Of a stretch of DNA of 64,000 bases, positions 6,526 through 51,000 are shown piece after piece. The stretch lies in the IMG/VR virus record IMGVR_UViG_3300019487_000025; one strand, 5' to 3'. Origin of the DNA: a virus. The position numbers were made by a program, and so were the translations under genes. The notes under the pieces were generated by a model, which saw nothing but the letters and a program-made list of their open reading frames with translations, was not told the DNA's origin and did no database searches. Every line of letters starts with the position of its first letter. Position 1 is the stretch's first letter.

Positions 6526-8661
6526 ATGAAGTTCAGGATATTGGGATTACTACTTATAGTGTTAGTGTTATCTAGCTTTATACAAGATGCTTATGCTCTC
6601 ACAACAGGTCAATTAAGTCCAACAACAGCAATAAGCACCGGATCTACCATTAACCAATTTGCTGGTAGAAACAACGCATTTACAAGTAATAATAATTACG
6701 CAAGAGGAGCAAATAACGATGATCAAGCATATGGAGGCTTTGGTATTTCTATTCCAACATATGCAACTATTAATGGAATTACAGTTAATTTGGAAGGACA
6801 ACGTTTTCAATGTGCATCTGCAGATAATCCAAGATTCAGAGTTCAATTATCTACACCTTCATTAATAGGAAATCCTACTGGATTGGGTTCATTTACAAGT
6901 ACAACACAAACAACAACTAATTATGGATCTTCTGATTCGACAATAACATTGGGTGGAGTCTCTGATATGTGGGGATTATCTTATACTTCAACACAACTAA
7001 CTAATTTTTGGGTATTGGTGACAGCACTTTGTAATACAGGTGGAAATAATTTAAGATTAGATCATTTAACAGTAGAAATTACTTATACATTAACAGTTCC
7101 AAATGCTCCAGTCTTATCAACAACTGGTCACACTTCTTCAACAATCAGTCTAAGTTGGACTACCCCAACCAATGGAGGTTCTGCAATAACTTCTTATACT
7201 TTAGAACGTTCTATCAATAATTTCGTATCGGTTGATCAATCATTTTCTATTCCTTTTGGTACAAACACTAAAGTGGATAGTGGCTTAAGTCCAAACACAT
7301 CATACCAATACAGAGTAAAAGCGACAAACGTGATAGGTGATAGTCCGTATTCAAACATACTTCCTGTCACCACTGATTCAACTATTCCAGATACTCCAAT
7401 TTTGTCAGAAATTAGTCACACTTCACTATCAGTTGCTACAAGCTGGACAACGCCTTTTAATGGTGGAACGCCTATAACCTCATATACCCTAGAACGTTCT
7501 ACTGATAACTTTGGTTCTATAGATCAATCCTATGTTCTTTTATTCGGAACCAATACATATAATAATACAGGTTTATCAGCTAACACTTTATATCAATTCA
7601 GAGTAAAGGCTACTAATCCAGTTGGAGATAGCCCATACTCAAACATTGTAAGTGTTACAACCGATCCAACGCCTCCTCCAATAGATGTGACTCCTCCAGT
7701 TTTAACAATATTAGGTTTCAATCCACTTAATCACACTATAAATACTCCATATATAGACGCGGGAGCAACAGCTAACGATGATTTTGACGGCGATATTACT
7801 ACCAGCATAATTACAACCAACAATGTAAATGCAAGTGCATTAGGAACTTATACAGTCGATTACTTTGTCGAAGATTTGGCTGGAAATAACTCAACGGCTA
7901 GTAGAACAGTTTATGTAGTAAGTTCACCACCAATATCTCCACCAATATCTAATTCTACAACTCCTACTCCACACAGCAATCAATGTAGAGATTGTGTTCC
8001 TCCGACACTTGGTATTGATGTAAATAATAAAGCAAGAGTAAGTGGTGGATTTACCTATAACGGAAAAACAGTAGATGTAACCTCTTTCAGAACACCATTT
8101 CCACAAATTGGAACTAATGTAGGAGATAATAATACTTTGACTTTGAAAATTTATGAGGATTCTGGAGTCAATAATATAAAACATATAGCAATAGGATTTG
8201 GACTTGAGAAAAATAGAGGATTCTCAGAAAGTAAAGCCTATATTGAATTCAATAGAGATTGGAAGGGAAACACATCTACCAAAATAACAGGTAATATTCA
8301 AAATGTTACATATTCTAGTAATATTGTTCAATGTGGAATAGTTAGAGCAAACTGTCTGGAATTTACAGTGTATCATACATTCACAAAAGATGTAAGTGGA
8401 ATAGTTGGAACTCTTGTGTGGGATGATAAAAGAAACTCATGGTCTAATTACTTTAACCATGGAATAATTATAAAGGATAATAAAATTATTATTCAGGAAC
8501 CAGAACCTGAAAAGGTAGATGAAGATAAATTAAAAGGAGTAACATCTTTTGGATACTTTGAAAGAAAGAGTTTTGCTTTTGAAAATTATAAACAGTATCA
8601 AGCAGATGAAGCTAAAAAATTGTTTAACAGTTTATATGGACGAATAAATAATTGGGATTAA
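6526..8661 (+). CDS. Secreted/surface protein: signal peptide, beta-sandwich, two Fn3 domains, DUF5011-like Ig domain, thaumarchaeal-type C-terminal domain
   Basis: Two PxAP...ISLSWTTPxNGGSxITSYTLERS...YQYRVKATN..GDSPYSN Fn3 repeats; PVLTILGFNP...YIDAGATANDDFDGDIT; DCVPPTLG...KIYEDSG...WDDKRNSWSNYFNHG tail recalled from Nitrosopumilaceae surface proteins. Confidence 0.8.
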   Translation: MKFRILGLLLIVLVLSSFIQDAYALTTGQLSPTTAISTGSTINQFAGRNNAFTSNNNYARGANNDDQAYGGFGISIPTYATINGITVNLEGQRFQCASADNPRFRVQLSTPSLIGNPTGLGSFTSTTQTTTNYGSSDSTITLGGVSDMWGLSYTSTQLTNFWVLVTALCNTGGNNLRLDHLTVEITYTLTVPNAPVLSTTGHTSSTISLSWTTPTNGGSAITSYTLERSINNFVSVDQSFSIPFGTNTKVDSGLSPNTSYQYRVKATNVIGDSPYSNILPVTTDSTIPDTPILSEISHTSLSVATSWTTPFNGGTPITSYTLERSTDNFGSIDQSYVLLFGTNTYNNTGLSANTLYQFRVKATNPVGDSPYSNIVSVTTDPTPPPIDVTPPVLTILGFNPLNHTINTPYIDAGATANDDFDGDITTSIITTNNVNASALGTYTVDYFVEDLAGNNSTASRTVYVVSSPPISPPISNSTTPTPHSNQCRDCVPPTLGIDVNNKARVSGGFTYNGKTVDVTSFRTPFPQIGTNVGDNNTLTLKIYEDSGVNNIKHIAIGFGLEKNRGFSESKAYIEFNRDWKGNTSTKITGNIQNVTYSSNIVQCGIVRANCLEFTVYHTFTKDVSGIVGTLVWDDKRNSWSNYFNHGIIIKDNKIIIQEPEPEKVDEDKLKGVTSFGYFERKSFAFENYKQYQADEAKKLFNSLYGRINNWD

Positions 8662-10363: not shown

Positions 10364-11299
10364 ATGGCTACAAAGACATTTACATGTGACGTTTTGCTAG
10401 AAAGCACAGTTACAAAAACATGGCAACTTAGAGAATGGGATGTTAACGCTTCATTTAGTCCAGATATTACATTTCAACAGGAAGTTACATCTCCCAGCAG
10501 ATTGCAAATAATCAGTGGTACTTCTTCTATAGCTAGTGGTCTAGTGTTTAAAGTATTTCCAAAATCTGAAATAACTGGAAGTGACATAACAGTAATTTGG
10601 GAAGAAACTCCTTCTGGTATAGATACAAGTTGTCGTATAGAAGTAAGAGACGGTGCTTACGACGCAACATCATTAACCGACATGCCGAATAATAGTGGGG
10701 CATTTGCTGTAAAGGGAGCAGGTTCAATAGGACTTTTACAAGTTCTTAATCCAAATCCTGAACAAACCGATACTCTTTCAGCATCAAGTATAGATTATGC
10801 AAGTTCTACAGAACAATTCATAACAGTTTTTGTTTATCTTGCAGATACCAATCTTGGGATTACAGCAAATCTCTTTATTAGAGAAATAGCCGTATCTAAT
10901 ATTGCTACATTTGACTTTACGCCCGCAACCGTTTCAATGTACTTAACTGGAACAGTTAATGATTATGGTTATGTAAACGCAGACACAGTAACGTTAACAT
11001 CAGCAACAGTAACAGATAAAGACTTTATAATAGATGCAAGATTGATAATGGAAGATTTTGGTGATTTCAGGGATATTGGAGATTTAATTATAAGAGTATT
11101 GATAGAAAATCCAGAGGGGTTGAGTGGTAGACAAGTAGTTGATGAAATACGAGTTATAACGGAAATGGAACCAGAATGGGGATTTTTGGGTAAGACTCAC
11201 AGAGTAAAAGGATGGATTAATTTTCTATTTAAGAATGGAACTATCCAGAATGATGGAAGCGACCCAGATTGGTGGCAATCAGTCTGGACTCTTGTGTAG
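10364..11299 (+). CDS. Putative virion accessory beta-sandwich protein carrying F-T-x-D-A-like strands
   Basis: N-terminal TKTFTCDVLL and internal KDFIIDARL match the repeat of 32408..37216. Confidence 0.6.
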   Translation: MATKTFTCDVLLESTVTKTWQLREWDVNASFSPDITFQQEVTSPSRLQIISGTSSIASGLVFKVFPKSEITGSDITVIWEETPSGIDTSCRIEVRDGAYDATSLTDMPNNSGAFAVKGAGSIGLLQVLNPNPEQTDTLSASSIDYASSTEQFITVFVYLADTNLGITANLFIREIAVSNIATFDFTPATVSMYLTGTVNDYGYVNADTVTLTSATVTDKDFIIDARLIMEDFGDFRDIGDLIIRVLIENPEGLSGRQVVDEIRVITEMEPEWGFLGKTHRVKGWINFLFKNGTIQNDGSDPDWWQSVWTLV

Positions 11300-30768: not shown

Positions 30769-32343
30769 ATGACAGGGAGAATTACTGAGTTTACTGAGGC
30801 AACTCCAACAGACGATGATTATTTAGAATTTATAGATCTCGCAGAAGCAATTAACACAGATGCTAGAAATAAGAGAACAACTTTTGGTGATTTAAGGGGA
30901 GTTAATTCATGCAAAGATTCTGTTAGGGTTGCTACAACAACTAACGGAGATTTAGCAACAGCTTATGAAAATGGAGATACAGTAGATGGGGTTGTTCTTA
31001 ATACTGGAGACAGAATATTACTTAAAAATCAAACAACTGGTTCGGAAGACGGTATTTATACTGTTAATGCAAGCGGAGCACCAACTAGGGCAAAAGATTT
31101 TGATACAAGCACAGATGCAAGAAGCGGTTCTTTAGTACTAGTTCAGGAAGGAACAACAAATGCAGATACGATTTGGCAACTTACAACAAATGCTCCCATT
31201 ACATTAGGATCAACCTCTTTGACATTTACACAAGTTGATGCAAGCCATAATTTACTTTCATCAAAACACGGGGATACATTATCTGGAACCGTAGTTAGAG
31301 GTGATTCAATTGTAGGAAATAGCACCCCAGCATGGTCTAGAATAGGTATAGGAACAGCATCTAAACGCTGGAAGAGTGATGGAACAGATCCAAGTTGGGC
31401 TTGGGATAATGTAGTAACAAAAACATCAACTGCCACATTAGTAGATAGTGAAGAAATTATTTTAGTAAATCCTAGCACAAGTGCAATGACAATTAACTTA
31501 CCCCCTGCAAGTGGAAGAGGAGGAAAAAAATATAAATTAATTTATATTTCAACGACAGGTCAGCCAGTAACTATAGATGCAGATGGAAGTGAAACAATTA
31601 ATGGGAAACTAACAGTTTTACATGAACATAAATATACACAATGGTATTTAAGATGTGATGGTTCAAACTGGTTTGGAGAGTATAGTTCTAGACCATTTGC
31701 AAGTTTTTCATTTATAGATTTAATTGATGATTTTAATGGTGTTGATGGTTCAGTAATAGGTAATTTATCATGGGCTGGTCAGGGAGTTGGAACAGAAGTT
31801 ATAGAATCAATAGCTGGAGAGGCTAATCACTTTGGAATTTATAGGTTTTCTACAGGTGGTGCAAGTGGAGACGATTGTATTGTATTTTTAGGAGAAACAC
31901 CAACAATAGGTTCTTTAATCGCCAGTGATGATTGGAGTGTTACATTTTTAATAAGAATAACTGGAACATTAGCAAATGCAACAAGAAGATATGGTTTATT
32001 TGGTACTGCTACTTCAAACAGTAACGAAACAAGCGAAAACGCCTGTTTCTTGTTTGATACTGCCGTAAGTGCAAATTGGAGAATGAGAACGAGAAGTTCA
32101 GGTGGTACTGATCAAACTACAACTGGTTCTGGTGCGGTCACATTAAATACTTGGTATAAACTAAAAATTGTAAACGATGGTGGAACAATAAGATTTTATA
32201 TTAATGATATAAATGTTGCTAATCATTCAACTCAAGTTCCAAGTGGTGCTGTTTTGCCAGTCATAACTGTTGATAATACATCGGCATCATCGAGATCACA
32301 TGATATTGATTACTTTAACATCAGAGTGATACAATCAAGGTGA
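30769..32343 (+). CDS. Tail fibre or head decoration protein
   Basis: KDSVRVATT...DGVVLNTGDRILLKNQT...DGIY...TRAKDFD domain; C-terminal lectin-like fold. Confidence 0.8.
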   Translation: MTGRITEFTEATPTDDDYLEFIDLAEAINTDARNKRTTFGDLRGVNSCKDSVRVATTTNGDLATAYENGDTVDGVVLNTGDRILLKNQTTGSEDGIYTVNASGAPTRAKDFDTSTDARSGSLVLVQEGTTNADTIWQLTTNAPITLGSTSLTFTQVDASHNLLSSKHGDTLSGTVVRGDSIVGNSTPAWSRIGIGTASKRWKSDGTDPSWAWDNVVTKTSTATLVDSEEIILVNPSTSAMTINLPPASGRGGKKYKLIYISTTGQPVTIDADGSETINGKLTVLHEHKYTQWYLRCDGSNWFGEYSSRPFASFSFIDLIDDFNGVDGSVIGNLSWAGQGVGTEVIESIAGEANHFGIYRFSTGGASGDDCIVFLGETPTIGSLIASDDWSVTFLIRITGTLANATRRYGLFGTATSNSNETSENACFLFDTAVSANWRMRTRSSGGTDQTTTGSGAVTLNTWYKLKIVNDGGTIRFYINDINVANHSTQVPSGAVLPVITVDNTSASSRSHDIDYFNIRVIQSR

Positions 32344-32407
32344 TTTTAAATGATATTAAATGATAAAATGTCTAATACAATAGATAAATCAAATCCTAAT
32401 ACAATAG

Positions 32408-35400
32408 GTGGTAAAAATGACTTTAAGATATCTTGAAGGTGGTTCTACAGAACGTAGATTAGAAGGCAATTCAACTGAAAGAACACTTGAAGGTATTACA
32501 AGAACTAAGACTTTTACATGCGATGCAATATTAGTAAATAGGAACACACAAACATTCACATGTGATGGATTATTAGAAGCAACGATTAATTTCAATTTTA
32601 CAGTAGATGCATTAATAGAAGCAGAAGTAATGGAGTTTTTCCTAGTAGATGCATTATTGGAGCAAACATTTGATGAAACATTTACAGTTGATGCAATATT
32701 AAACAAAGTATCAGATTTTACAGTAGATTCATTATTAAGAGATACATTTGATGGAACATTTACTGTAGATTCGATTGTAATAAACAGAATAAACAAGACA
32801 TTTATTGTAGATACCATATTATCACAAGAAGCATTAAATCTATTTTTGATAGATGCTTTATTAGAAGAGACCAATACATTTACGTTTGATATAGATGCAA
32901 TAACATATTTACCAATTTATAATACATATACTATAGATGCTTTATTAAAGAAAGAAAAGACAAAAACTTTCATTATTGATGCTGTATTTGAACAAGAAAA
33001 AACTAAAACATTTACAGTTGACTCATTATTAATTTCATCAACACAACCTACAAAACTATTTGCTGTTGATGCAAGGTTAAAACAAGTTCAAACAGAAACA
33101 TTCACGGTTCAGGCAAACTTAAGATATAAACAAACTAAAACACCAACCGTTGATGCATTAATAAAACTAACAGGAGAGGTCTTATGTAGTACGTTAGAAC
33201 CAATATTCTCTGATACATTTGATTCAAGTACAGGATGGACGACATTTGGATTAATCACAGTTGATTCGTTAGCAAACCCCGATGTATTAAGATATAGTTG
33301 TGTTAATTCATCAAATCCGGGTTCTCAGGCAATAAAGACGTTACCTATTCCAACGGGAGAAGAATTTAGGATAGAATTTACACACAATAATATTGGAGGA
33401 TGTACATCATTCGGTTCATTTGCTTCATTTGGACTTACTGATTCAACAACAAGAATAGGACACCAATTTACCGCCGTACCAAAATTAGAATATAGAGTTA
33501 ATTCGGGTGATGGACCTAATGGCGAAGGAATAAGAATACTTTACAGATCTACAGTATCAGATCCAGTATTAATTAGTGTAAGTGCTATTCCAATGACTGA
33601 TAATACAACATATTATGTAAGAATAGACAAAAACTTGGCAAGTATAATTACGCTAAGTATGTTCTCAGATTCAGCTAGAACAATTCACGTATCAGGCTCT
33701 CCAATTACATTAGATGTATCGTCACAGATTAAGGTTCCATTTACATATGTTCAAGCTTCAAACGTAGGTCCTGCAGGTCCGGGTAGTGCAAGACAATATA
33801 CTGGAGAAATAGAGGATTTGATAATATATGAAGACAGATGTCCAAACTTCCTTGTAGACGCATTCTTGAAGAAAACACAAGAAGAGGTATTTAATATTGA
33901 TGCAAATCTTTCAACTAGATTCCAATTTACTTGTGATGCTTTATTAAAGAAAACAAGAACTAAGACATTTACAATAGATGCATTCTTTGAAGCGGAAGAT
34001 ACGCTAGAAACATTTACAACAGATGCACTTCTTGTAAGAGTTAAAAAATTCAGTTTAGATGCTCTTATCAAAGCATTGGGAGACAATAGATGTCCATTTG
34101 AGAATATATTTGAGGAACACTTTACAACTACATCAGGATGGAGTGTTGAAATTAATAATACTACTGTAGATGGATGGGGAACACAAAGAATATTCATAGA
34201 TGGTGAATCTCTATCTTCACAAGAATTAGACCAATTTGGCGATACTAATGGGTTTGCTTATATCATAATGCCTCCGGGCGGATTTAATCCATCTGATACA
34301 CCTATATTGAAATCGAAATACAGGAGAAAGAAACTTGATTTTAATGGAGGAATAGGAAGAGTAAGAGGAAATAATATTAGATTAGACTTTGAACTTACAC
34401 ATATTTCTGGAACATTAGGAAAATGGGTAGTATTGAATAAATCAAGCTTACATCCAGACAATGATCCAAATACTGCAACTTTAAATGTAAATGTATCTGC
34501 TTCTCAAGCAATATCAGTTACACTTGGTGATGGAGTAAACAGTGCAACTACATCATCGTTATCAATAGGAGGAGTAAAAAGATATGTATCTATAGAATCG
34601 GTTGGAAATACACTAACATTAAACGTATATTCAGATGAAGCACATACAACTCACATAGCAGGTTCTCCAATTAATGTTAATACATCTTCTGTAAATAAGG
34701 ATCAATTAGATTTAAGTTGGTTAATAATAGGTGCAAATAACAAGAGTGCTAGTACAGCAAATCCAGATACAATCGGAAAAGTTGATAATATTAAGATATT
34801 TTCATCACCATGTCCAGTAGCATATGTTGATGGTTATTTAACACAATCATTTAGTACCACATTAACGATAGATGCAAGATTAATAAAAGAACAACGATTC
34901 ACAATAGATGCTATAATACAAGGCAGAAAGTTCTTTAATGTTGATGCCAAATTAGTAAGAGAAAGAACAACAATAATAGATGCTTTGTTATTCAAGACTA
35001 GAACTAGACTATTTACAGTAGATCCGTTACTAATAGGAGCGGTAAATAAGACATTTAAAATAGATGGATTACCATTTGTTCCACCAGCGGTATTAATAAT
35101 AACCGACGCAATAATTAACTTACAGGATGTAAATAAAACATTTGATATTGATTCTATATTAATAAAAGGAGCATTCCATACATTTACTGTAGATGCATTT
35201 ATAATACAATTAACTATAAATAAACAATTTACCGTAGATTCAAGAATAAGAGAAACAAACATAGAATCATTTTATGTAGACGCATTGGTAAAAATGTTAG
35301 GATCTAACGGAACATGTAATTTCCAGCCAGATCCATTCTTTGCTATCGATACTGGATTGGAACAATATATCGGACCTATAACTCCAGAGCATGAGGAAAG

Positions 35401-37216
35401 TGTTGATTTATTGATAGGACAAGAAGTTATTTTGAATAATCAACAAGTAAGAAGAGTAATTGTATTATTAAGAGCAAGTGGGTTCCCCAATGAGATAATA
35501 GAAGAATCATTGATAATAGGAAAAATATGGGGCAATGTTGTAGTAGGCAATCCAGCAGGAGAAATAGTTGAATCAACCTCAGAAAATACTATAAACGCAC
35601 AAAATACATCTGGAGATCTTCCAGCAGGTGTTTGGAGAGAAATAACATTTATTTATGATCCTTTGACAACTCCATTCCTAACAGGAAACTTTGTAGTTGG
35701 ATTCCAGCACTTTGTTGGACCTAATACAAATGATCCACAAGGAGTAGGAATTGCAATTCCAGTTATATCTAATAGCAACGTAATATCTGGAAGTGCTGTG
35801 ATGAGAAGAGAAGGAAATTCAATAATTGATCCATTGACGTGGCAATACCTAACCTCAATGTCTAAGGATATAGTAATAAGAGTTGAAGTGGTAAATGGCG
35901 ATGACGTAGTAGAAGGAATAAACAGACGATGTCCAAGAGTAGATTCACTGTTGTCACTAGCAAACACAAAAGTAGTAACTGTTGATGCTCATATTGCAAC
36001 CAGAAAGTTATTCACATTAGATGCATTGTTTGATCAAGCAAAACCAAAGACATTTATCATAGATGCTAGATTGATTGGTAATCCAAAACCAAAAGTAGAT
36101 GCAATACTTATAACAGCATCAATATTTACAATAGACGCTGTAACATTCACACCACCAGCAATAACATTCACTATAGATGCGTTATTAAGAGGAGCAAAAT
36201 TTACGATAGATGCATACATTGAGCAACAAAACAAAAACAAAATATTTAATTGCAATGCATTATTATCAGTTCCAAATAATCTAAAAACATTCAGTATTGA
36301 TGCAAAAACACAGTACTTTAATCTAGTTGCTCCATTCAAGGTAGATGGATTTGTAATAAGATTCCCAAGTGCATTATTCTTCATAGATGGAATAGTTAAA
36401 GCCTTTAACAAACAGAAGTTATTCAGAGTAGACGCTTTATTAGAAAAAACAAAAACATCCACTTTCTTAGTTGATGCAAGAGTAAAGAAAACAGGATTTA
36501 AGACATTTACAGTGGATGCTGAATTAATAATAAAAGACAAAGTAGTAACATTTGACATAACAGCATCGCTAGCAACTACACAGCCTCCAATATTATTCAG
36601 TGTTGGTGCATTAATAATTAAAACAAATGCAAGATATAGAGTAGATTCACTATTAAGATTAAGAAAAACAAAGACATTTACAGCGGATGCAAGATTATCA
36701 AGTAGACTAAACAAAACATATTTAACAGATGCATTGATTAAAGAATTTAATGTAGCAGAGTTGGTAATAATAGATTCAATAATAAAGAAACAAACGGATC
36801 TGCAATTCATAGTAGATGCAAATGTAGAATCAACGGCTGGGGTTGTTACATTTACAATAAACTCTAGATTAGTGTTCCCATTCAAGAAACCACTGGTTGA
36901 TGCAAGAGTGGTAAATAGGAAAATAAAGGAATTTACTGTTGATAGTTTCATAGATCCACCATTTAAACAAAAACCAAGAGTAGATGCAATAGTTAAAGCA
37001 TTTGGAATAAATAGACCATTTACAATAGATGCATTAATAGGAATTGGTCAAAAGAAAGTAACAGTTGACGCAAAGCTAAATAAGATTAAGATCTTTACTA
37101 TAGATGCTATGACTGGAGAATTAATAGATGTGGGAGTGGAAGCAGAATCTGTAATAAACGATGGTAGTGGTAACGTAGGATTCGAATCAACCATGGGTAT
37201 AGGTGGTACACAATGA
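32408..37216 (+). CDS. 1602-aa repetitive fibre-like protein: ~60 F-T-[VI]-D-A repeats with three inserted globular domains
   Basis: Repeats counted manually in the translation; inserts bounded by Cys. Confidence 0.8.
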   Translation: MVKMTLRYLEGGSTERRLEGNSTERTLEGITRTKTFTCDAILVNRNTQTFTCDGLLEATINFNFTVDALIEAEVMEFFLVDALLEQTFDETFTVDAILNKVSDFTVDSLLRDTFDGTFTVDSIVINRINKTFIVDTILSQEALNLFLIDALLEETNTFTFDIDAITYLPIYNTYTIDALLKKEKTKTFIIDAVFEQEKTKTFTVDSLLISSTQPTKLFAVDARLKQVQTETFTVQANLRYKQTKTPTVDALIKLTGEVLCSTLEPIFSDTFDSSTGWTTFGLITVDSLANPDVLRYSCVNSSNPGSQAIKTLPIPTGEEFRIEFTHNNIGGCTSFGSFASFGLTDSTTRIGHQFTAVPKLEYRVNSGDGPNGEGIRILYRSTVSDPVLISVSAIPMTDNTTYYVRIDKNLASIITLSMFSDSARTIHVSGSPITLDVSSQIKVPFTYVQASNVGPAGPGSARQYTGEIEDLIIYEDRCPNFLVDAFLKKTQEEVFNIDANLSTRFQFTCDALLKKTRTKTFTIDAFFEAEDTLETFTTDALLVRVKKFSLDALIKALGDNRCPFENIFEEHFTTTSGWSVEINNTTVDGWGTQRIFIDGESLSSQELDQFGDTNGFAYIIMPPGGFNPSDTPILKSKYRRKKLDFNGGIGRVRGNNIRLDFELTHISGTLGKWVVLNKSSLHPDNDPNTATLNVNVSASQAISVTLGDGVNSATTSSLSIGGVKRYVSIESVGNTLTLNVYSDEAHTTHIAGSPINVNTSSVNKDQLDLSWLIIGANNKSASTANPDTIGKVDNIKIFSSPCPVAYVDGYLTQSFSTTLTIDARLIKEQRFTIDAIIQGRKFFNVDAKLVRERTTIIDALLFKTRTRLFTVDPLLIGAVNKTFKIDGLPFVPPAVLIITDAIINLQDVNKTFDIDSILIKGAFHTFTVDAFIIQLTINKQFTVDSRIRETNIESFYVDALVKMLGSNGTCNFQPDPFFAIDTGLEQYIGPITPEHEESVDLLIGQEVILNNQQVRRVIVLLRASGFPNEIIEESLIIGKIWGNVVVGNPAGEIVESTSENTINAQNTSGDLPAGVWREITFIYDPLTTPFLTGNFVVGFQHFVGPNTNDPQGVGIAIPVISNSNVISGSAVMRREGNSIIDPLTWQYLTSMSKDIVIRVEVVNGDDVVEGINRRCPRVDSLLSLANTKVVTVDAHIATRKLFTLDALFDQAKPKTFIIDARLIGNPKPKVDAILITASIFTIDAVTFTPPAITFTIDALLRGAKFTIDAYIEQQNKNKIFNCNALLSVPNNLKTFSIDAKTQYFNLVAPFKVDGFVIRFPSALFFIDGIVKAFNKQKLFRVDALLEKTKTSTFLVDARVKKTGFKTFTVDAELIIKDKVVTFDITASLATTQPPILFSVGALIIKTNARYRVDSLLRLRKTKTFTADARLSSRLNKTYLTDALIKEFNVAELVIIDSIIKKQTDLQFIVDANVESTAGVVTFTINSRLVFPFKKPLVDARVVNRKIKEFTVDSFIDPPFKQKPRVDAIVKAFGINRPFTIDALIGIGQKKVTVDAKLNKIKIFTIDAMTGELIDVGVEAESVINDGSGNVGFESTMGIGGTQ

Positions 37217-39924
37217 CAGCGTGGGATATTTCAACAGCAGTATTTCAAAATTCAAAACAAGTAGTAACTTCTTCAACACATTCACCAACAGGATTGTTTA
37301 TCAGAAGTGATGGATTAAAAATGTATGTTATAAACAATTCGAGGGTAAATGATGGAAATCCAGCAAACACAAATCAAATTTTAGAATTTAATCTTTCTAC
37401 AGCATGGAATATAACAACAGCTTCACTTGTTCAATCTTTTAACGTTACTCCAAACACTGTTGATCCAAAAGGGATATTTTTTAGACCTGATGGTACTAGA
37501 ATGTTTCTGGTAAAAGGTGAACCACCTGTAAGAATACATCAATATAATTTATCAACACCATGGAATATATCAACGGCAATATTTAACATAACCAGTATAG
37601 AACTACCAGCACCAACACCAGTAGTATTTCCACAAGATATATTCTTTAGAAGTGATGGATTGAAACTATACATAACAAATACTGATGATGATGAAATACT
37701 TGAATATAATTTATCAGTACCATGGGATGTAACAAACCCATCACTTTCATTTGTTCAAAGTAAAAGTGTAGTTGCTCAAGACACCGTTCCAACTGGAATA
37801 TTCTTTAAACCAGATGGATTAAAAATGTATATAACGGGAGGACAAAATAGAAATATTTATGAATATAATCTTTCTACAGCATGGAATATATCTACTGCCA
37901 CATTTTTCCAAAGTAAAAATATAAGTACTGAGGATACACTTCCAATAAGCTTATTTTTCAAGCCAGATGGATTAAATATATTTACAACTGGTGATACAAA
38001 CGGTCGTGTTTATTCATATGATTTATCAGAAGCACCGCCACCACCATGTTTACCTCCTTGTATATTTTGTGATGATATTTCTACGAATACTGGATGGGTA
38101 AGAACAGGTCCTATTGTAAATAGCATGATATTGATTGATGATCCATCGTTTCCAGACACAATGAGATTAAATAGTTTAAATGGTAATAATTGGGCTTACA
38201 AAGATATAGGAGGTGCAATTTCAGGAAACAATATTAAATTTCAATTTAAACTTGATTATGAATCTAGAGTAACAGTAACTGGATTTTCTCCTAGAATTTC
38301 AGTAGCATTTGGCTCATCCACTGGTCATCCACAAACACAAACAGGAAGCATAATTAGAGTTGATGTTGACATATCAAAACAACCATATAGTGTATTAAAT
38401 GGTATAGTTAGTGATGGAATAACAACAATAAACACAGTTTCTGGAGCAAGTAACCAACATGCGTTATGGATATATCCTAATAATAATGTTCCAGCATCAA
38501 ATGATTCATTGAAAGGTCCTTATTATGTAACCGTTGAATTAAAGGATAATAAGTTAAGATTAAGTATGTATATTGATTCGGCTAGAACTCAACACATGAG
38601 AGGCAGTCCAATAACTGTAGATGCCATTGGTATGAATTTAACGAATCTTAGATATGTACTGGTTAGTGGTGGTTTTAATGCTGGCAGTGGAAGAGCATTT
38701 ACTGGATTTATTGATGATATATGTGTGTTTCAAAACTCTGGCGGGTTATCAATAATACCACAAAAATTTATTCCAGCCACAGGTTCATTTATAGAAACAT
38801 GGGATGGATACGCAACAGGAGATCAAAATCCAACGCCATGGATAAGTAGAAACGAAGTGATAGGAGGTCCTGTTACATTATTAACTGATATACATGAGGT
38901 TTCAACAATAAATCCAATAGAAGGAACAAAGGCATTTAAGATAAATCATAAATTTAGTAGGATAGGAAATGGACCAAGAGAAGGAAGAGAATCAGTTTCA
39001 AGATTTGTTCCAGCAGTAGTAAGAACAGATGGATCTGGATTAGATATACCATTATCATTAACCGCTAAAATGAGAGCAGATATCTTGAGTCTAGCAAGTG
39101 ATCCAATAGGAGTTATGGTAGGATATGAATTATTGTTGGGAGCACCAAGTGTTCCAACACCAACAAGAGGCATTTTCTTTAAATTATACGGAAATAATAG
39201 TTCAACAGTTGCTTATATATGGGATGGAACACAATGGATATCTAATAATCCTTTAGATGCACCTATCTCACAATCTAATCCTGTTGGTTCAATTCAAGAA
39301 ATATCTGTTTTTAATTTAAAAAATGAATTTGATAGTAGTGTTCAAAGCGAATTACTTGGATGGGATTTTGAATCTCACGTATCTGGAATATGGGTAGGAT
39401 ATGTAGGAGTTAATATTGCGGGTGCAAATTTTAATCCAACAGAGGTATTAATAAATGGTGATACAATATCTATGTTAAATGCTGGAGTAACAATAAAAAC
39501 ATTCCCTGTAGGTGCAATAATAAAAGGAGTGACACCGAAAGAATTCAAAGTAAGTGCTAAATTAATCAAAAGAAAAGAATTTACAATAAATGCTCATATT
39601 CCACCAATTCCAAAGAAACCAAAAGTTAATGCTAGATTAGTAAGAAGAAATGCAGTTAACAGTACCTATGTTAATGCTATTTTGTTTGGTACAGTAACAA
39701 TAACAACTCAAACAAAAACATTCTTGATAAACGCTATTATACAGCAACCTCTCTATAAGACTCCATTAGTAAATGCAATATTGATAAAAAGAAAAGAAAA
39801 AACCACTTCGATTAATGCTATATTGGTTCCTTTATCTAAGACTTTCAAAATAGATGCGTTAGTAGGAATATTTGAGCCAATGTCTATTTTAGACGTTGAG
39901 TCGGTGATAGGGCATGAAGTTTAA
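37213..39924 (+). CDS. Beta-propeller + lectin-like domains + C-terminal F-T-I-[DN]-A repeats
   Basis: Repeated G.FF[KR].DGLK.Y...EYNLSTAW.I.TA blades; middle domain similar to inserts of upstream gene; about nine shaft repeats. Confidence 0.8.
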   Translation: MTAWDISTAVFQNSKQVVTSSTHSPTGLFIRSDGLKMYVINNSRVNDGNPANTNQILEFNLSTAWNITTASLVQSFNVTPNTVDPKGIFFRPDGTRMFLVKGEPPVRIHQYNLSTPWNISTAIFNITSIELPAPTPVVFPQDIFFRSDGLKLYITNTDDDEILEYNLSVPWDVTNPSLSFVQSKSVVAQDTVPTGIFFKPDGLKMYITGGQNRNIYEYNLSTAWNISTATFFQSKNISTEDTLPISLFFKPDGLNIFTTGDTNGRVYSYDLSEAPPPPCLPPCIFCDDISTNTGWVRTGPIVNSMILIDDPSFPDTMRLNSLNGNNWAYKDIGGAISGNNIKFQFKLDYESRVTVTGFSPRISVAFGSSTGHPQTQTGSIIRVDVDISKQPYSVLNGIVSDGITTINTVSGASNQHALWIYPNNNVPASNDSLKGPYYVTVELKDNKLRLSMYIDSARTQHMRGSPITVDAIGMNLTNLRYVLVSGGFNAGSGRAFTGFIDDICVFQNSGGLSIIPQKFIPATGSFIETWDGYATGDQNPTPWISRNEVIGGPVTLLTDIHEVSTINPIEGTKAFKINHKFSRIGNGPREGRESVSRFVPAVVRTDGSGLDIPLSLTAKMRADILSLASDPIGVMVGYELLLGAPSVPTPTRGIFFKLYGNNSSTVAYIWDGTQWISNNPLDAPISQSNPVGSIQEISVFNLKNEFDSSVQSELLGWDFESHVSGIWVGYVGVNIAGANFNPTEVLINGDTISMLNAGVTIKTFPVGAIIKGVTPKEFKVSAKLIKRKEFTINAHIPPIPKKPKVNARLVRRNAVNSTYVNAILFGTVTITTQTKTFLINAIIQQPLYKTPLVNAILIKRKEKTTSINAILVPLSKTFKIDALVGIFEPMSILDVESVIGHEV

Positions 39925-50337: not shown

Positions 50338-51000
50338 GTGGCTCGCTTAATAGAATGGGAAAGTGTAAAGGAAAAATTACGATTAAATGACGATACTTTA
50401 AAGGAAGAAATGTATCTATATATTCAAGAAGTAGACGATCTTGTAAATAACAGACTTCGAAATAAGTTAGGAACAGTTGATTTTAATGGTATAGATATTA
50501 TACTTCCACTTACAGTTGATAGTGAACCTGCTATTGATGAGGAATTAAAAGCAATAGCAACAGATTTGGTTATAGGTAAATTTAGATTACAAACTTCTGA
50601 GAAACCATTAGTTTGGGATACTGCAATTAAAAACTTAGATAATTATTTGGATAGACGATTTGGATATACAAGAGATGTTCCATTTAGGCAAATTCCCATA
50701 TTAATACCAGATACATTAGTAGGACCACCAAGCACCGTTGTAACAATAGAAGGGCAAAGATGGAAACCAAATTCATTATTAAAAATTTTTGTTGACGGCA
50801 TACAAGTTATCACATTCCCCGTACCAACGATTGTAAACGTAAATGGACAATTTTCAGGTGTAACTTTTACAATACCTAGGACATCACCTATTAATGATGT
50901 AGTAGAAATAAATGTTACTGATGGAAAAAACGCCAAACAGGTTAGTTTTAGTGTTATTCCATTTGTTAAAAGCTTTACGATTGATGGTAGGTTGCTATGA
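50338..51000 (+). CDS. Head-tail adaptor-like protein with C-terminal Ig/IPT domain
   Basis: Helical N-terminus (VKEKLRL...IATDL); Ig-like C-terminus ending SFTIDGRLL. Confidence 0.6.
   Translation: MARLIEWESVKEKLRLNDDTLKEEMYLYIQEVDDLVNNRLRNKLGTVDFNGIDIILPLTVDSEPAIDEELKAIATDLVIGKFRLQTSEKPLVWDTAIKNLDNYLDRRFGYTRDVPFRQIPILIPDTLVGPPSTVVTIEGQRWKPNSLLKIFVDGIQVITFPVPTIVNVNGQFSGVTFTIPRTSPINDVVEINVTDGKNAKQVSFSVIPFVKSFTIDGRLL

Follow-up and report, generated by a model that had tools for sequence, protein, structure and literature searches.

A modular, lectin-decorated viral fibre built on an undescribed repeat of about 14 residues

How can a viral fibre carry several whole globular domains along a shaft made of short repeats? 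This question is raised by a single gene of the IMG/VR virus record IMGVR_UViG_3300019487_000025, which we analysed over a stretch of 64,000 nucleotides (hereafter the window). To our knowledge, none of the tailed viruses that infect ammonia-oxidising archaea or related uncultured archaea has been grown, and host recognition by them is unexplored; the gene cluster described here is a concrete candidate for an adhesion apparatus of such archaeal viruses. The gene, termed here the fibre gene, can be read from a GTG at its first codon; the start on record in a public protein collection is the ATG at 32417 (Met4), which gives a product of 1599 amino acids (aa) on a contig of 139 kb. The protein is a real, conserved and modular lectin-decorated fibre, in which lectin-type domains are set at cysteine-framed junctions of an undescribed repeat scaffold. 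We somewhat favour the view that an uncultured tailed virus of archaea carries it as a surface fibre, with a solenoid shaft and Cys-closed lectin inserts that bind host sugars at multiple points, and it is probably the means by which the virus sticks to its host. The parts of the gene are as follows.

32408..37216, + strand: fibre gene, 1602 open codons from GTG
32507..33178, + strand: shaft block 1, 16 units, aa 34-257
33185..33841, + strand: insert 1, aa 260-478, 219 aa, Cys260 ... Cys478-Pro
33842..34084, + strand: shaft block 2, 6 units, aa 479-559
34091..34813, + strand: insert 2, aa 562-802, 241 aa, Cys562 ... Cys802-Pro
34814..35305, + strand: shaft block 3, 12 units, aa 803-966
35315..35932, + strand: insert 3, aa 970-1175, 206 aa, Cys970 ... 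Cys1175-Pro
35933..37123, + strand: shaft block 4, 29 units, aa 1176-1572
37124..37213, + strand: acidic C-terminal tail, two G-[VF]-E-x-E-S-[VT]-[IM]-like peptides

A position matrix built from the repeat recognised 63 shaft units in four blocks of 16, 6, 12 and 29, and a strict motif was present 59 times, in agreement with the figure of about 60 repeats given in an earlier note on this DNA. The strict motif was found only 6.6 ± 2.5 times (maximum 16) across 2000 shuffles of the protein. The core of the unit is K-T-F-T-[VI]-D-A-L-L, and the repeat of about 14 residues that it forms in the open reading frame (ORF) 32408-37216 is undescribed. Neighbouring units were most often spaced by 14 aa (27 cases), then by 12 aa (9 cases) and 15 aa (7 cases), which matches the period of 12-15 aa proposed before. 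The small residue of the core (A, S or G) was occupied in 61 of the 63 units, the Asp in 58, the V or I in 53 and the Phe in 48. The first two units of block 1 carry a Cys at the core V/I position (C38 and C52). No 42-nt tandem array was detected in the DNA of the fibre gene with Tandem Repeats Finder; the repeat is therefore old and has been maintained at the protein level. If the FTxDA family is defined by tandem units of 12-16 aa with the core F-x-[VI]-D-[ASG]-hydrophobic-hydrophobic, the fibre belongs to it.

The shaft is interrupted by three inserts of 219, 241 and 206 aa, as the earlier note had indicated in proposing three globular inserts of about 205-240 aa. Modelling supported the view that these are separate domains. 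Insert 1, modelled with AlphaFold2 (AF2) together with 3-7 flanking units, had predicted local distance difference test (pLDDT) scores of 70-90 over the insert. Its top Foldseek matches in the PDB were 5zbt, Emp46p/47p and soybean agglutinin (E of about 1e-8 to 5e-7; template modelling (TM) scores of 0.57-0.66 on the target), and the evolved Dit carbohydrate-binding module (CBM) CBM2 of Lactobacillus phage J-1 (5ly8) was also among the matches. As modelled, insert 1 is a two-sheet beta-sandwich of the concanavalin A (ConA)/legume-lectin kind, and it holds a second conserved Cys pair (298/332). Insert 2 is, from its sequence, a distant paralogue of insert 1 (phmmer E 5.5e-6, with the C-terminal ~80 aa aligned) and is presumed to be ConA-like by paralogy. 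Insert 3 was also modelled as a beta-sandwich (AF2 pLDDT 65-90), and VIA matched it to the lectin-like domain of Cwp84 (Z 8.1), a phi812 baseplate chain (6.7) and CBM15 (6.1); these middling Z values indicate the kind of fold only, and the model is that of a lectin/CBM-type sandwich. No other domain of the clade is as conserved as insert 3, which 8 relatives share and in which both Cys are invariant. Two marks of the clade, an insert 3 that precedes the final shaft block and an acidic tail with E-S-V-I, are present in the fibre. Searches of the whole fibre protein and of the isolated inserts against Pfam and PHROGs returned nothing usable.

All three inserts of the fibre are framed in the same way, by G-x(3-4)-C on the entry side and C-P on the exit side. 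The bracket residues are Cys 260/478, 562/802 and 970/1175, and their codons (33185/33839, 34091/34811 and 35315/35930) are exactly those listed in the earlier note. The opener reads D-A-L-[IV]-K-x-[LT]-G-x(3-4)-C and the closer C-P-x(1-3)-[VI]-D, so that the opener Cys falls 11-12 residues past the Asp of its unit, with the Gly at +7/8, and the closer Cys precedes the next Asp by 4 or 6 residues. A bracketed junction thus spans about 17-18 residues, some 3-4 more than a normal unit, which lends no support to the idea that the shaft register is exactly preserved across the inserts. Of 27 aligned insert copies, with identities down to about 25-45%, nearly all have both bracket Cys; the few exceptions (P0007_1775, P0004_981, P0033 and the ORF of the adjacent partner gene described below) are rows cut short or have the Cys offset by 1-4 positions. 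Relatives carry different sets of inserts, such as two domains of type 2 with one of type 3, two of type 1 with a novel domain and one of type 3, or at least five inserts, where the types are numbered after the inserts of the fibre. The number and type of the inserts therefore vary while the flanking Cys are kept, which is the check that had been suggested for the brackets. The LamG inserts of the family member P0013 are framed by G-x(3-4)-C ... C-P as well.

We then asked how widely the shaft repeat occurs. The whole fibre protein retrieved 47 clusters. Searched among 1.84 billion proteins, the last shaft block matched 353 representative clusters at E<=1e-3 and 139 at E<=1e-10, none of them named, and a search of the ESM Atlas gave unnamed viral clusters only. 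The shaft matched no Pfam or PHROG family, none of 50,697 sequenced phage records and no PDB sequence, either as a single sequence or as a family profile, in line with the earlier statement that it is not a recognised named fibre family; a literature search found nothing relevant on the motif or on 14-residue fibre repeats. The repeat thus defines a sizeable family without a family model, a structure or a literature, which spans archaeal viruses and phage-like contigs binned with ultrasmall bacteria of the candidate phyla radiation (CPR) and with Planctomycetia. Among its ~350 clusters, P0003, P0004, P0006, P0009, P0049 and P0050 may be cited as members. Three IMG/VR contigs encode a version of 2304 aa that is 61% identical to the fibre and lies in the same gene order. 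One of these relatives, P0003 (IMG/VR UViG_3300025313_000008), shares 61% identity over the common part together with the same three inserts, brackets and neighbours; it differs in having about 24 more units, a globular N-terminal domain of 405 aa and a putative head-tail adaptor without the one-unit tag described below. A tblastn search of the window with the 405-aa domain found the repeats only, and the fibre of the window consists of 33 aa followed directly by unit 1. This leader (32408-32506) stands in place of the relatives' N-terminal domain and contains L-E-G-[GN]-S-T-E-R two or three times ahead of unit 1.

A strict two-unit DNA pattern searched over 185,579 species genomes gave 44 stretches, of which only 4-5 were real members, on contigs of metagenome-assembled genomes (MAGs) of Saccharibacteria, Patescibacteria and Planctomycetia. 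The other stretches were rejected as chance occurrences or unrelated repeats, and a reading of the Patescibacteria member L023 as a pilin fusion was rejected too. LamG and DUF2341 domains occur in more distant members, as do 'minor tail protein' domains and weak matches to BclA_C. On the phage-like Planctomycetia MAG contig CAYVYZ010000009.1 (L029, L042) the member follows a CBM96 protein and precedes the tail tube (PF18906) and the tape measure, a place to the head/neck side of the tail genes. The 'discoidin domain' protein of Oceanospirillum phage vB_OliS_GJ44 (L052:6977-8617) matched a family member weakly and was rejected as a relative, the repeat being a different one; this protein, encoded at the Dit position, has about 20 Pro-rich 14-aa repeats (T-P-A-D-A-[VI]-P-[SV]-Q...) before its discoidin domain.

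The surroundings of the fibre gene bear on where the protein might sit on the virion. The window has 31-36% G+C and nearly all of its genes on the + strand. Its products include PCNA, a RadA/Rad51 recombinase and a fusion of the portal with a RelA/SpoT domain. Relative to the portal gene, the fibre gene is placed 3 kb upstream, and it is far from the presumed, weakly annotated tail genes at ~51-61.5 kb. Its two neighbours, both of which encode proteins of virion type that bear lectin domains, are the following.

30769..32343, + strand: upstream neighbour, 524 aa, capsid-decoration-like N-terminal domain and Laminin_G_3 (ConA-like) domain
37213..39924, + strand: partner gene, 903 aa, start overlapping the fibre stop by 4 nt (ATGA)

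The upstream neighbour matched the PHROG for head decoration (2.4e-29), Pfam PF13385 (3.7e-7) and, in the PDB, the 'capsid decoration protein' 9nx3 (E 2.6e-5); in relatives a 110-aa ORF occupies this position instead. The partner gene is conserved beside the fibre gene in relatives. Its product consists of five propeller-like blades of ~55 aa, a Cys-flanked lectin domain homologous to inserts 1/2 and a further domain, followed by about nine shaft units of the form F-x-I-N-A and, as in the fibre, an acidic ...D-V-E-S-V-I-G at the end. The acidic ...E-S-V-I tail is thus common to the fibre, the product of the next gene and their relatives. The short tandem peptides after the final unit differ by lineage (window 37124-37213; P0006, P0010, P0017, P0018) and include G-V-E-S-V-I-V-E-N-N-S in two or three copies, D-S-G-I-L-T-Q-T-N-T in two and N-T-D-W-F-D-K-N-N-T in three or four. 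The five ~55-aa repeats of the partner N-terminus (37213-38067) contain '..Y-N-L-S-T-A-W-N-I-S-T-A..', have a weak SGL/beta-propeller match in Pfam and are rich in N-x-S/T sequons.

To describe the fold of the shaft we used two AF2 runs, one with 25 sequences, in which the shaft pLDDT was 30-40, and one with 74 sequences, in which it was ~50-65. Both runs placed one strand of 6-9 residues in each unit, with 7-9 residues for shaft block 4. Of the earlier proposal of a beta-fibre, the beta-rich shaft with one predicted strand per unit was upheld, and its architecture was modelled, at low confidence, as a single-chain solenoid. VIA aligned residues 240-481 of the run-2 model with a SufB/D-type beta-helix (9h78_B; Z 12.9, root-mean-square deviation (rmsd) 4.1 Å over 226 residues) and also with SufD (1vh4, Z 9.8), SufBCD (Z ~10) and curli CsgA (Z 9.9); tailspike and autotransporter beta-helices matched more weakly. 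Foldseek found no match to the shaft model at E<=1e-3, and the BFVD fold search gave only weak, high-rmsd matches to repetitive viral proteins. SufD has been described as a beta-helix of flattened shape, each turn of which has two strands, and it doubles in length by dimerising end to end (PMC6006206). The alignment of the shaft model with such a fold implies two units per turn. Within each strand the inner face is formed by F, V/I, A and L in strict alternation, and the outer face by T, T, D and a column that is mostly hydrophobic (41 of 59 units). The outer face looks buried, and the shaft is therefore still likely to associate further or to be an intertwined oligomer.

On these models we would give about an even chance to a shaft that is a single-chain solenoid, possibly oligomerised. 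Several observations weigh against this and against the reading of the whole protein built on it. With shaft pLDDT values as low as those obtained, the solenoid could be an artefact of folding an obligate oligomer as a single chain, and regular repeats of any kind can reach a Z of about 13. The numbers of units between inserts are mostly even (6, 12, 10, 2, 16, 4), many of them inherited, and also include 5, 3 and 25, so that a structural period of 28 aa is not established. Where only two units part two large domains, which is the case in P0006 and P0049, a solenoid rising by 4.8 Å for every two units would leave them crowded. The Pfam search of isolated inserts 1-3 gave no lectin match. Furthermore, inserts free of Cys are frequent in distant, mostly bacterial-type, family members, and the bracket is therefore a feature of the clade and not a requirement of the scaffold. 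Some of the same points suit an intertwined homotrimeric beta-fibre, in which each unit forms one side of a three-chain layer, as a triple beta-helix or in a spiral-like way, and the lectin domains ring the shaft in threes. Phage and adenovirus fibres are trimeric as a rule, and an obligate oligomer would give just such low-confidence monomer models. The near-invariant Asp, the two Thr ladders and the largely hydrophobic column (41/59) of the outer face would suit a buried inter-chain interface, a longer rise per unit would ease the crowding where 2 or 6 units part large inserts, and a weak BclA_C domain (trimeric, C1q/TNF-like) stands at the N-terminus of some family members. However, a Gly/Pro turn and a second hydrophobic strand, which the triple beta-spiral has, are absent from the unit, and no solved trimeric fibre was found by sequence, by profile or among the fold matches of the shaft. 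We consider the trimer a tentative possibility, and leave the rest of the probability to some fold that is neither solenoid nor intertwined trimer.

The brackets and the position on the virion can be weighed in the same manner. The bracket Cys might not act as a staple that preserves the shaft; they could be intrinsic to mobile lectin domains, or be free or metal-bound, with adjacent termini sufficing for insertion. The lectin domain of the partner protein does keep its flanking Cys without any shaft around it, and the numerous Cys-free inserts of distant members include LamG domains. Yet three unrelated folds (types 1/2, type 3, the LamG of P0013), and others, share the frame at fixed distances, which points to a property of the junction and not of one domain family; we judge the staple-free explanation improbable. 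As to position, the size of the protein and its lectin content suit a receptor-binding protein, and the N-terminal region of the family member P0015 matches PHROGs named 'minor tail protein', as might be expected of a classical distal tail fibre serving as the primary receptor-binding protein rather than of a neck or head appendage. But the gene is found just upstream of the portal, beside the capsid-decoration-like LamG protein and distant from the tail genes, the Planctomycetia member precedes the tail tube and tape measure instead of following them, the putative adaptor, a neck protein, bears a one-unit tag, and no known tail-attachment domain was detected in the Pfam and PHROG searches. 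The fibre gene thus lacks the place in a tail module downstream of the tape measure that a classical tail fibre has, and those searches detected no attachment N-domain in its product. We regard a distal tail fibre as unlikely, and the neck or the head would be at least as likely a location as the tail.

If the fibre is a solenoid shaft with Cys-closed lectin inserts, as we favour, its construction may be pictured as follows. Each of the 63 units would give one strand, with F, V/I, A and L on one side and T, T and D on the other, and the strands would stack as a long beta-shaft. The likeliest form would be a beta-solenoid, flattened into two sheets, in which each 4.8 Å turn takes up two units (28 aa), and such solenoids would probably associate further through their Thr/Asp/hydrophobic outer faces. 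At three of the arcs between strands the chain would exit the shaft after the conserved Gly, build a lectin-type beta-sandwich of 206-241 aa with adjacent ends, and return via Cys-Pro. The flanking Cys pair would form a disulfide and close the excursion to a loop that exceeds a normal arc by just a few residues; with the loop closed to near-normal length, the next unit could stack on. The domains would thereby be exchangeable cassettes, with which the differing numbers and kinds of inserts in relatives agree, and would let the virus adhere to host-envelope glycans in a multivalent and probably reversible manner. If this is true, the Cys-closed junction is a natural scaffold that accepts whole domains of 200 aa at defined loops, and could both help to annotate host-range modules and serve as a display scaffold.

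By analogy, the presumed function of the fibre most resembles that of the adhesion devices, decorated with CBMs, of phages that infect lactic acid bacteria, with a different carrier, junction and host domain. In those phages, CBMs in Dit and in other tail and neck proteins have been shown to bind host cells (PMC6669499). Common to both are exchangeable lectin/CBM 'bricks' in loops of virion proteins, neck appendages included, and insert 1 matches the J-1 Dit CBM2 by fold. The carrier here is a long, undescribed array of 14-residue units that matched no Pfam or PHROG family and is probably distinct from the Dit, Tal, MTP and NPS carriers there, and a conserved Cys pair at the junctions and a presumed archaeal host are further differences. 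With the triple beta-spiral of adenovirus fibre, reovirus sigma1 and PRD1 P5, the shaft shares beta repeats of about 15 residues with alternating hydrophobics. Unlike the triple beta-spiral, it has no Gly/Pro column, one predicted strand per unit and a nearly invariant Asp, and it bears globular domains along its length and not at the tip alone. The likeness to the SufD/SufB beta-helix, which is right-handed and flattened (1VH4, 5AWF, 9H78), and to curli CsgA, namely turns of two strands and a pair of parallel sheets that face each other in a low-confidence model, comes with no sequence relation and with an unrelated function. The YadA-like head of trimeric autotransporter adhesins is a left-handed parallel beta-roll with a 14-residue repeat. 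The fibre shares this adhesin period and differs in consensus; the whole protein matched no Pfam family at E<=0.01, and its large core residues would not suit so tight a roll.

Shaft units were not confined to the fibre. At a matrix score of at least 15 we found four in the other proteins of the window, against 0.08 expected: the last unit of the partner protein, two in ORF 10364-11299 and one ending ORF 50338-51000. The units outside the fibre and partner genes are the following.

50962..50997, + strand: adaptor tag unit K-S-F-T-I-D-G-R-L-L, extreme C-terminus of ORF 50338-51000, matrix score 15.5
10373-10402 (with core Cys) and 11018-11047, + strand: two single shaft units of ORF 10364-11299, scores 19.4 and 19.7

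The product of ORF 50338-51000, which follows the capsid gene, is a putative gp6-like head-tail adaptor by sequence (Pfam Phage_connect_1, a weak match with E 0.015). The one-unit tag on it is newly found here. It was present in 40 of 76 homologue clusters, typically as P-F-T-K-T-F-x-[LIV]-D-G-V-L, and the others end 12-13 residues earlier. In the three IMG/VR relatives, whose fibre has the 405-aa N-terminal domain, the adaptor is 76% identical and without the tag; this inverse relation between tag and N-terminal domain, seen in two lineages, is suggestive. ORF 10364-11299 encodes 311 aa, with units at residues 3-12 and ~219-228 flanking a globular domain, and the core Cys of its first unit resembles that of the first two fibre units. 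It looks like a free-standing cassette, and in relatives its globular domain sits within the partner protein (40% identity), which shows that cassettes move between fibre proteins. The unit may be a portable docking strand, such that open shaft ends take up units of other proteins by beta-strand addition and swappable, hetero-polymeric neck fibres result. Candidate strand donors would then be the adaptor tag, the pair of units in ORF 10364-11299 and the nine in the partner protein. If docking of this kind took place, fibres with an N-terminal anchor domain of their own would need no adaptor tag; we hold such docking to be rather unlikely. The conserved tag on a neck protein nevertheless suggests a simple rule for mounting such fibres.

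Two minor observations were made in the window. In its early region, positions 6526-8661 encode a protein of 711 aa with fibronectin type III and bacterial Ig-like domains, which may be another surface or adhesion protein. Long antisense ORFs of up to 305 aa lie within the fibre gene, at 36034-36951 (- strand), 32389-32874, 33751-34197 and 34834-35262 (- strand). The same is seen in L001, and they are most likely a by-product of the codon pattern of the repeat.

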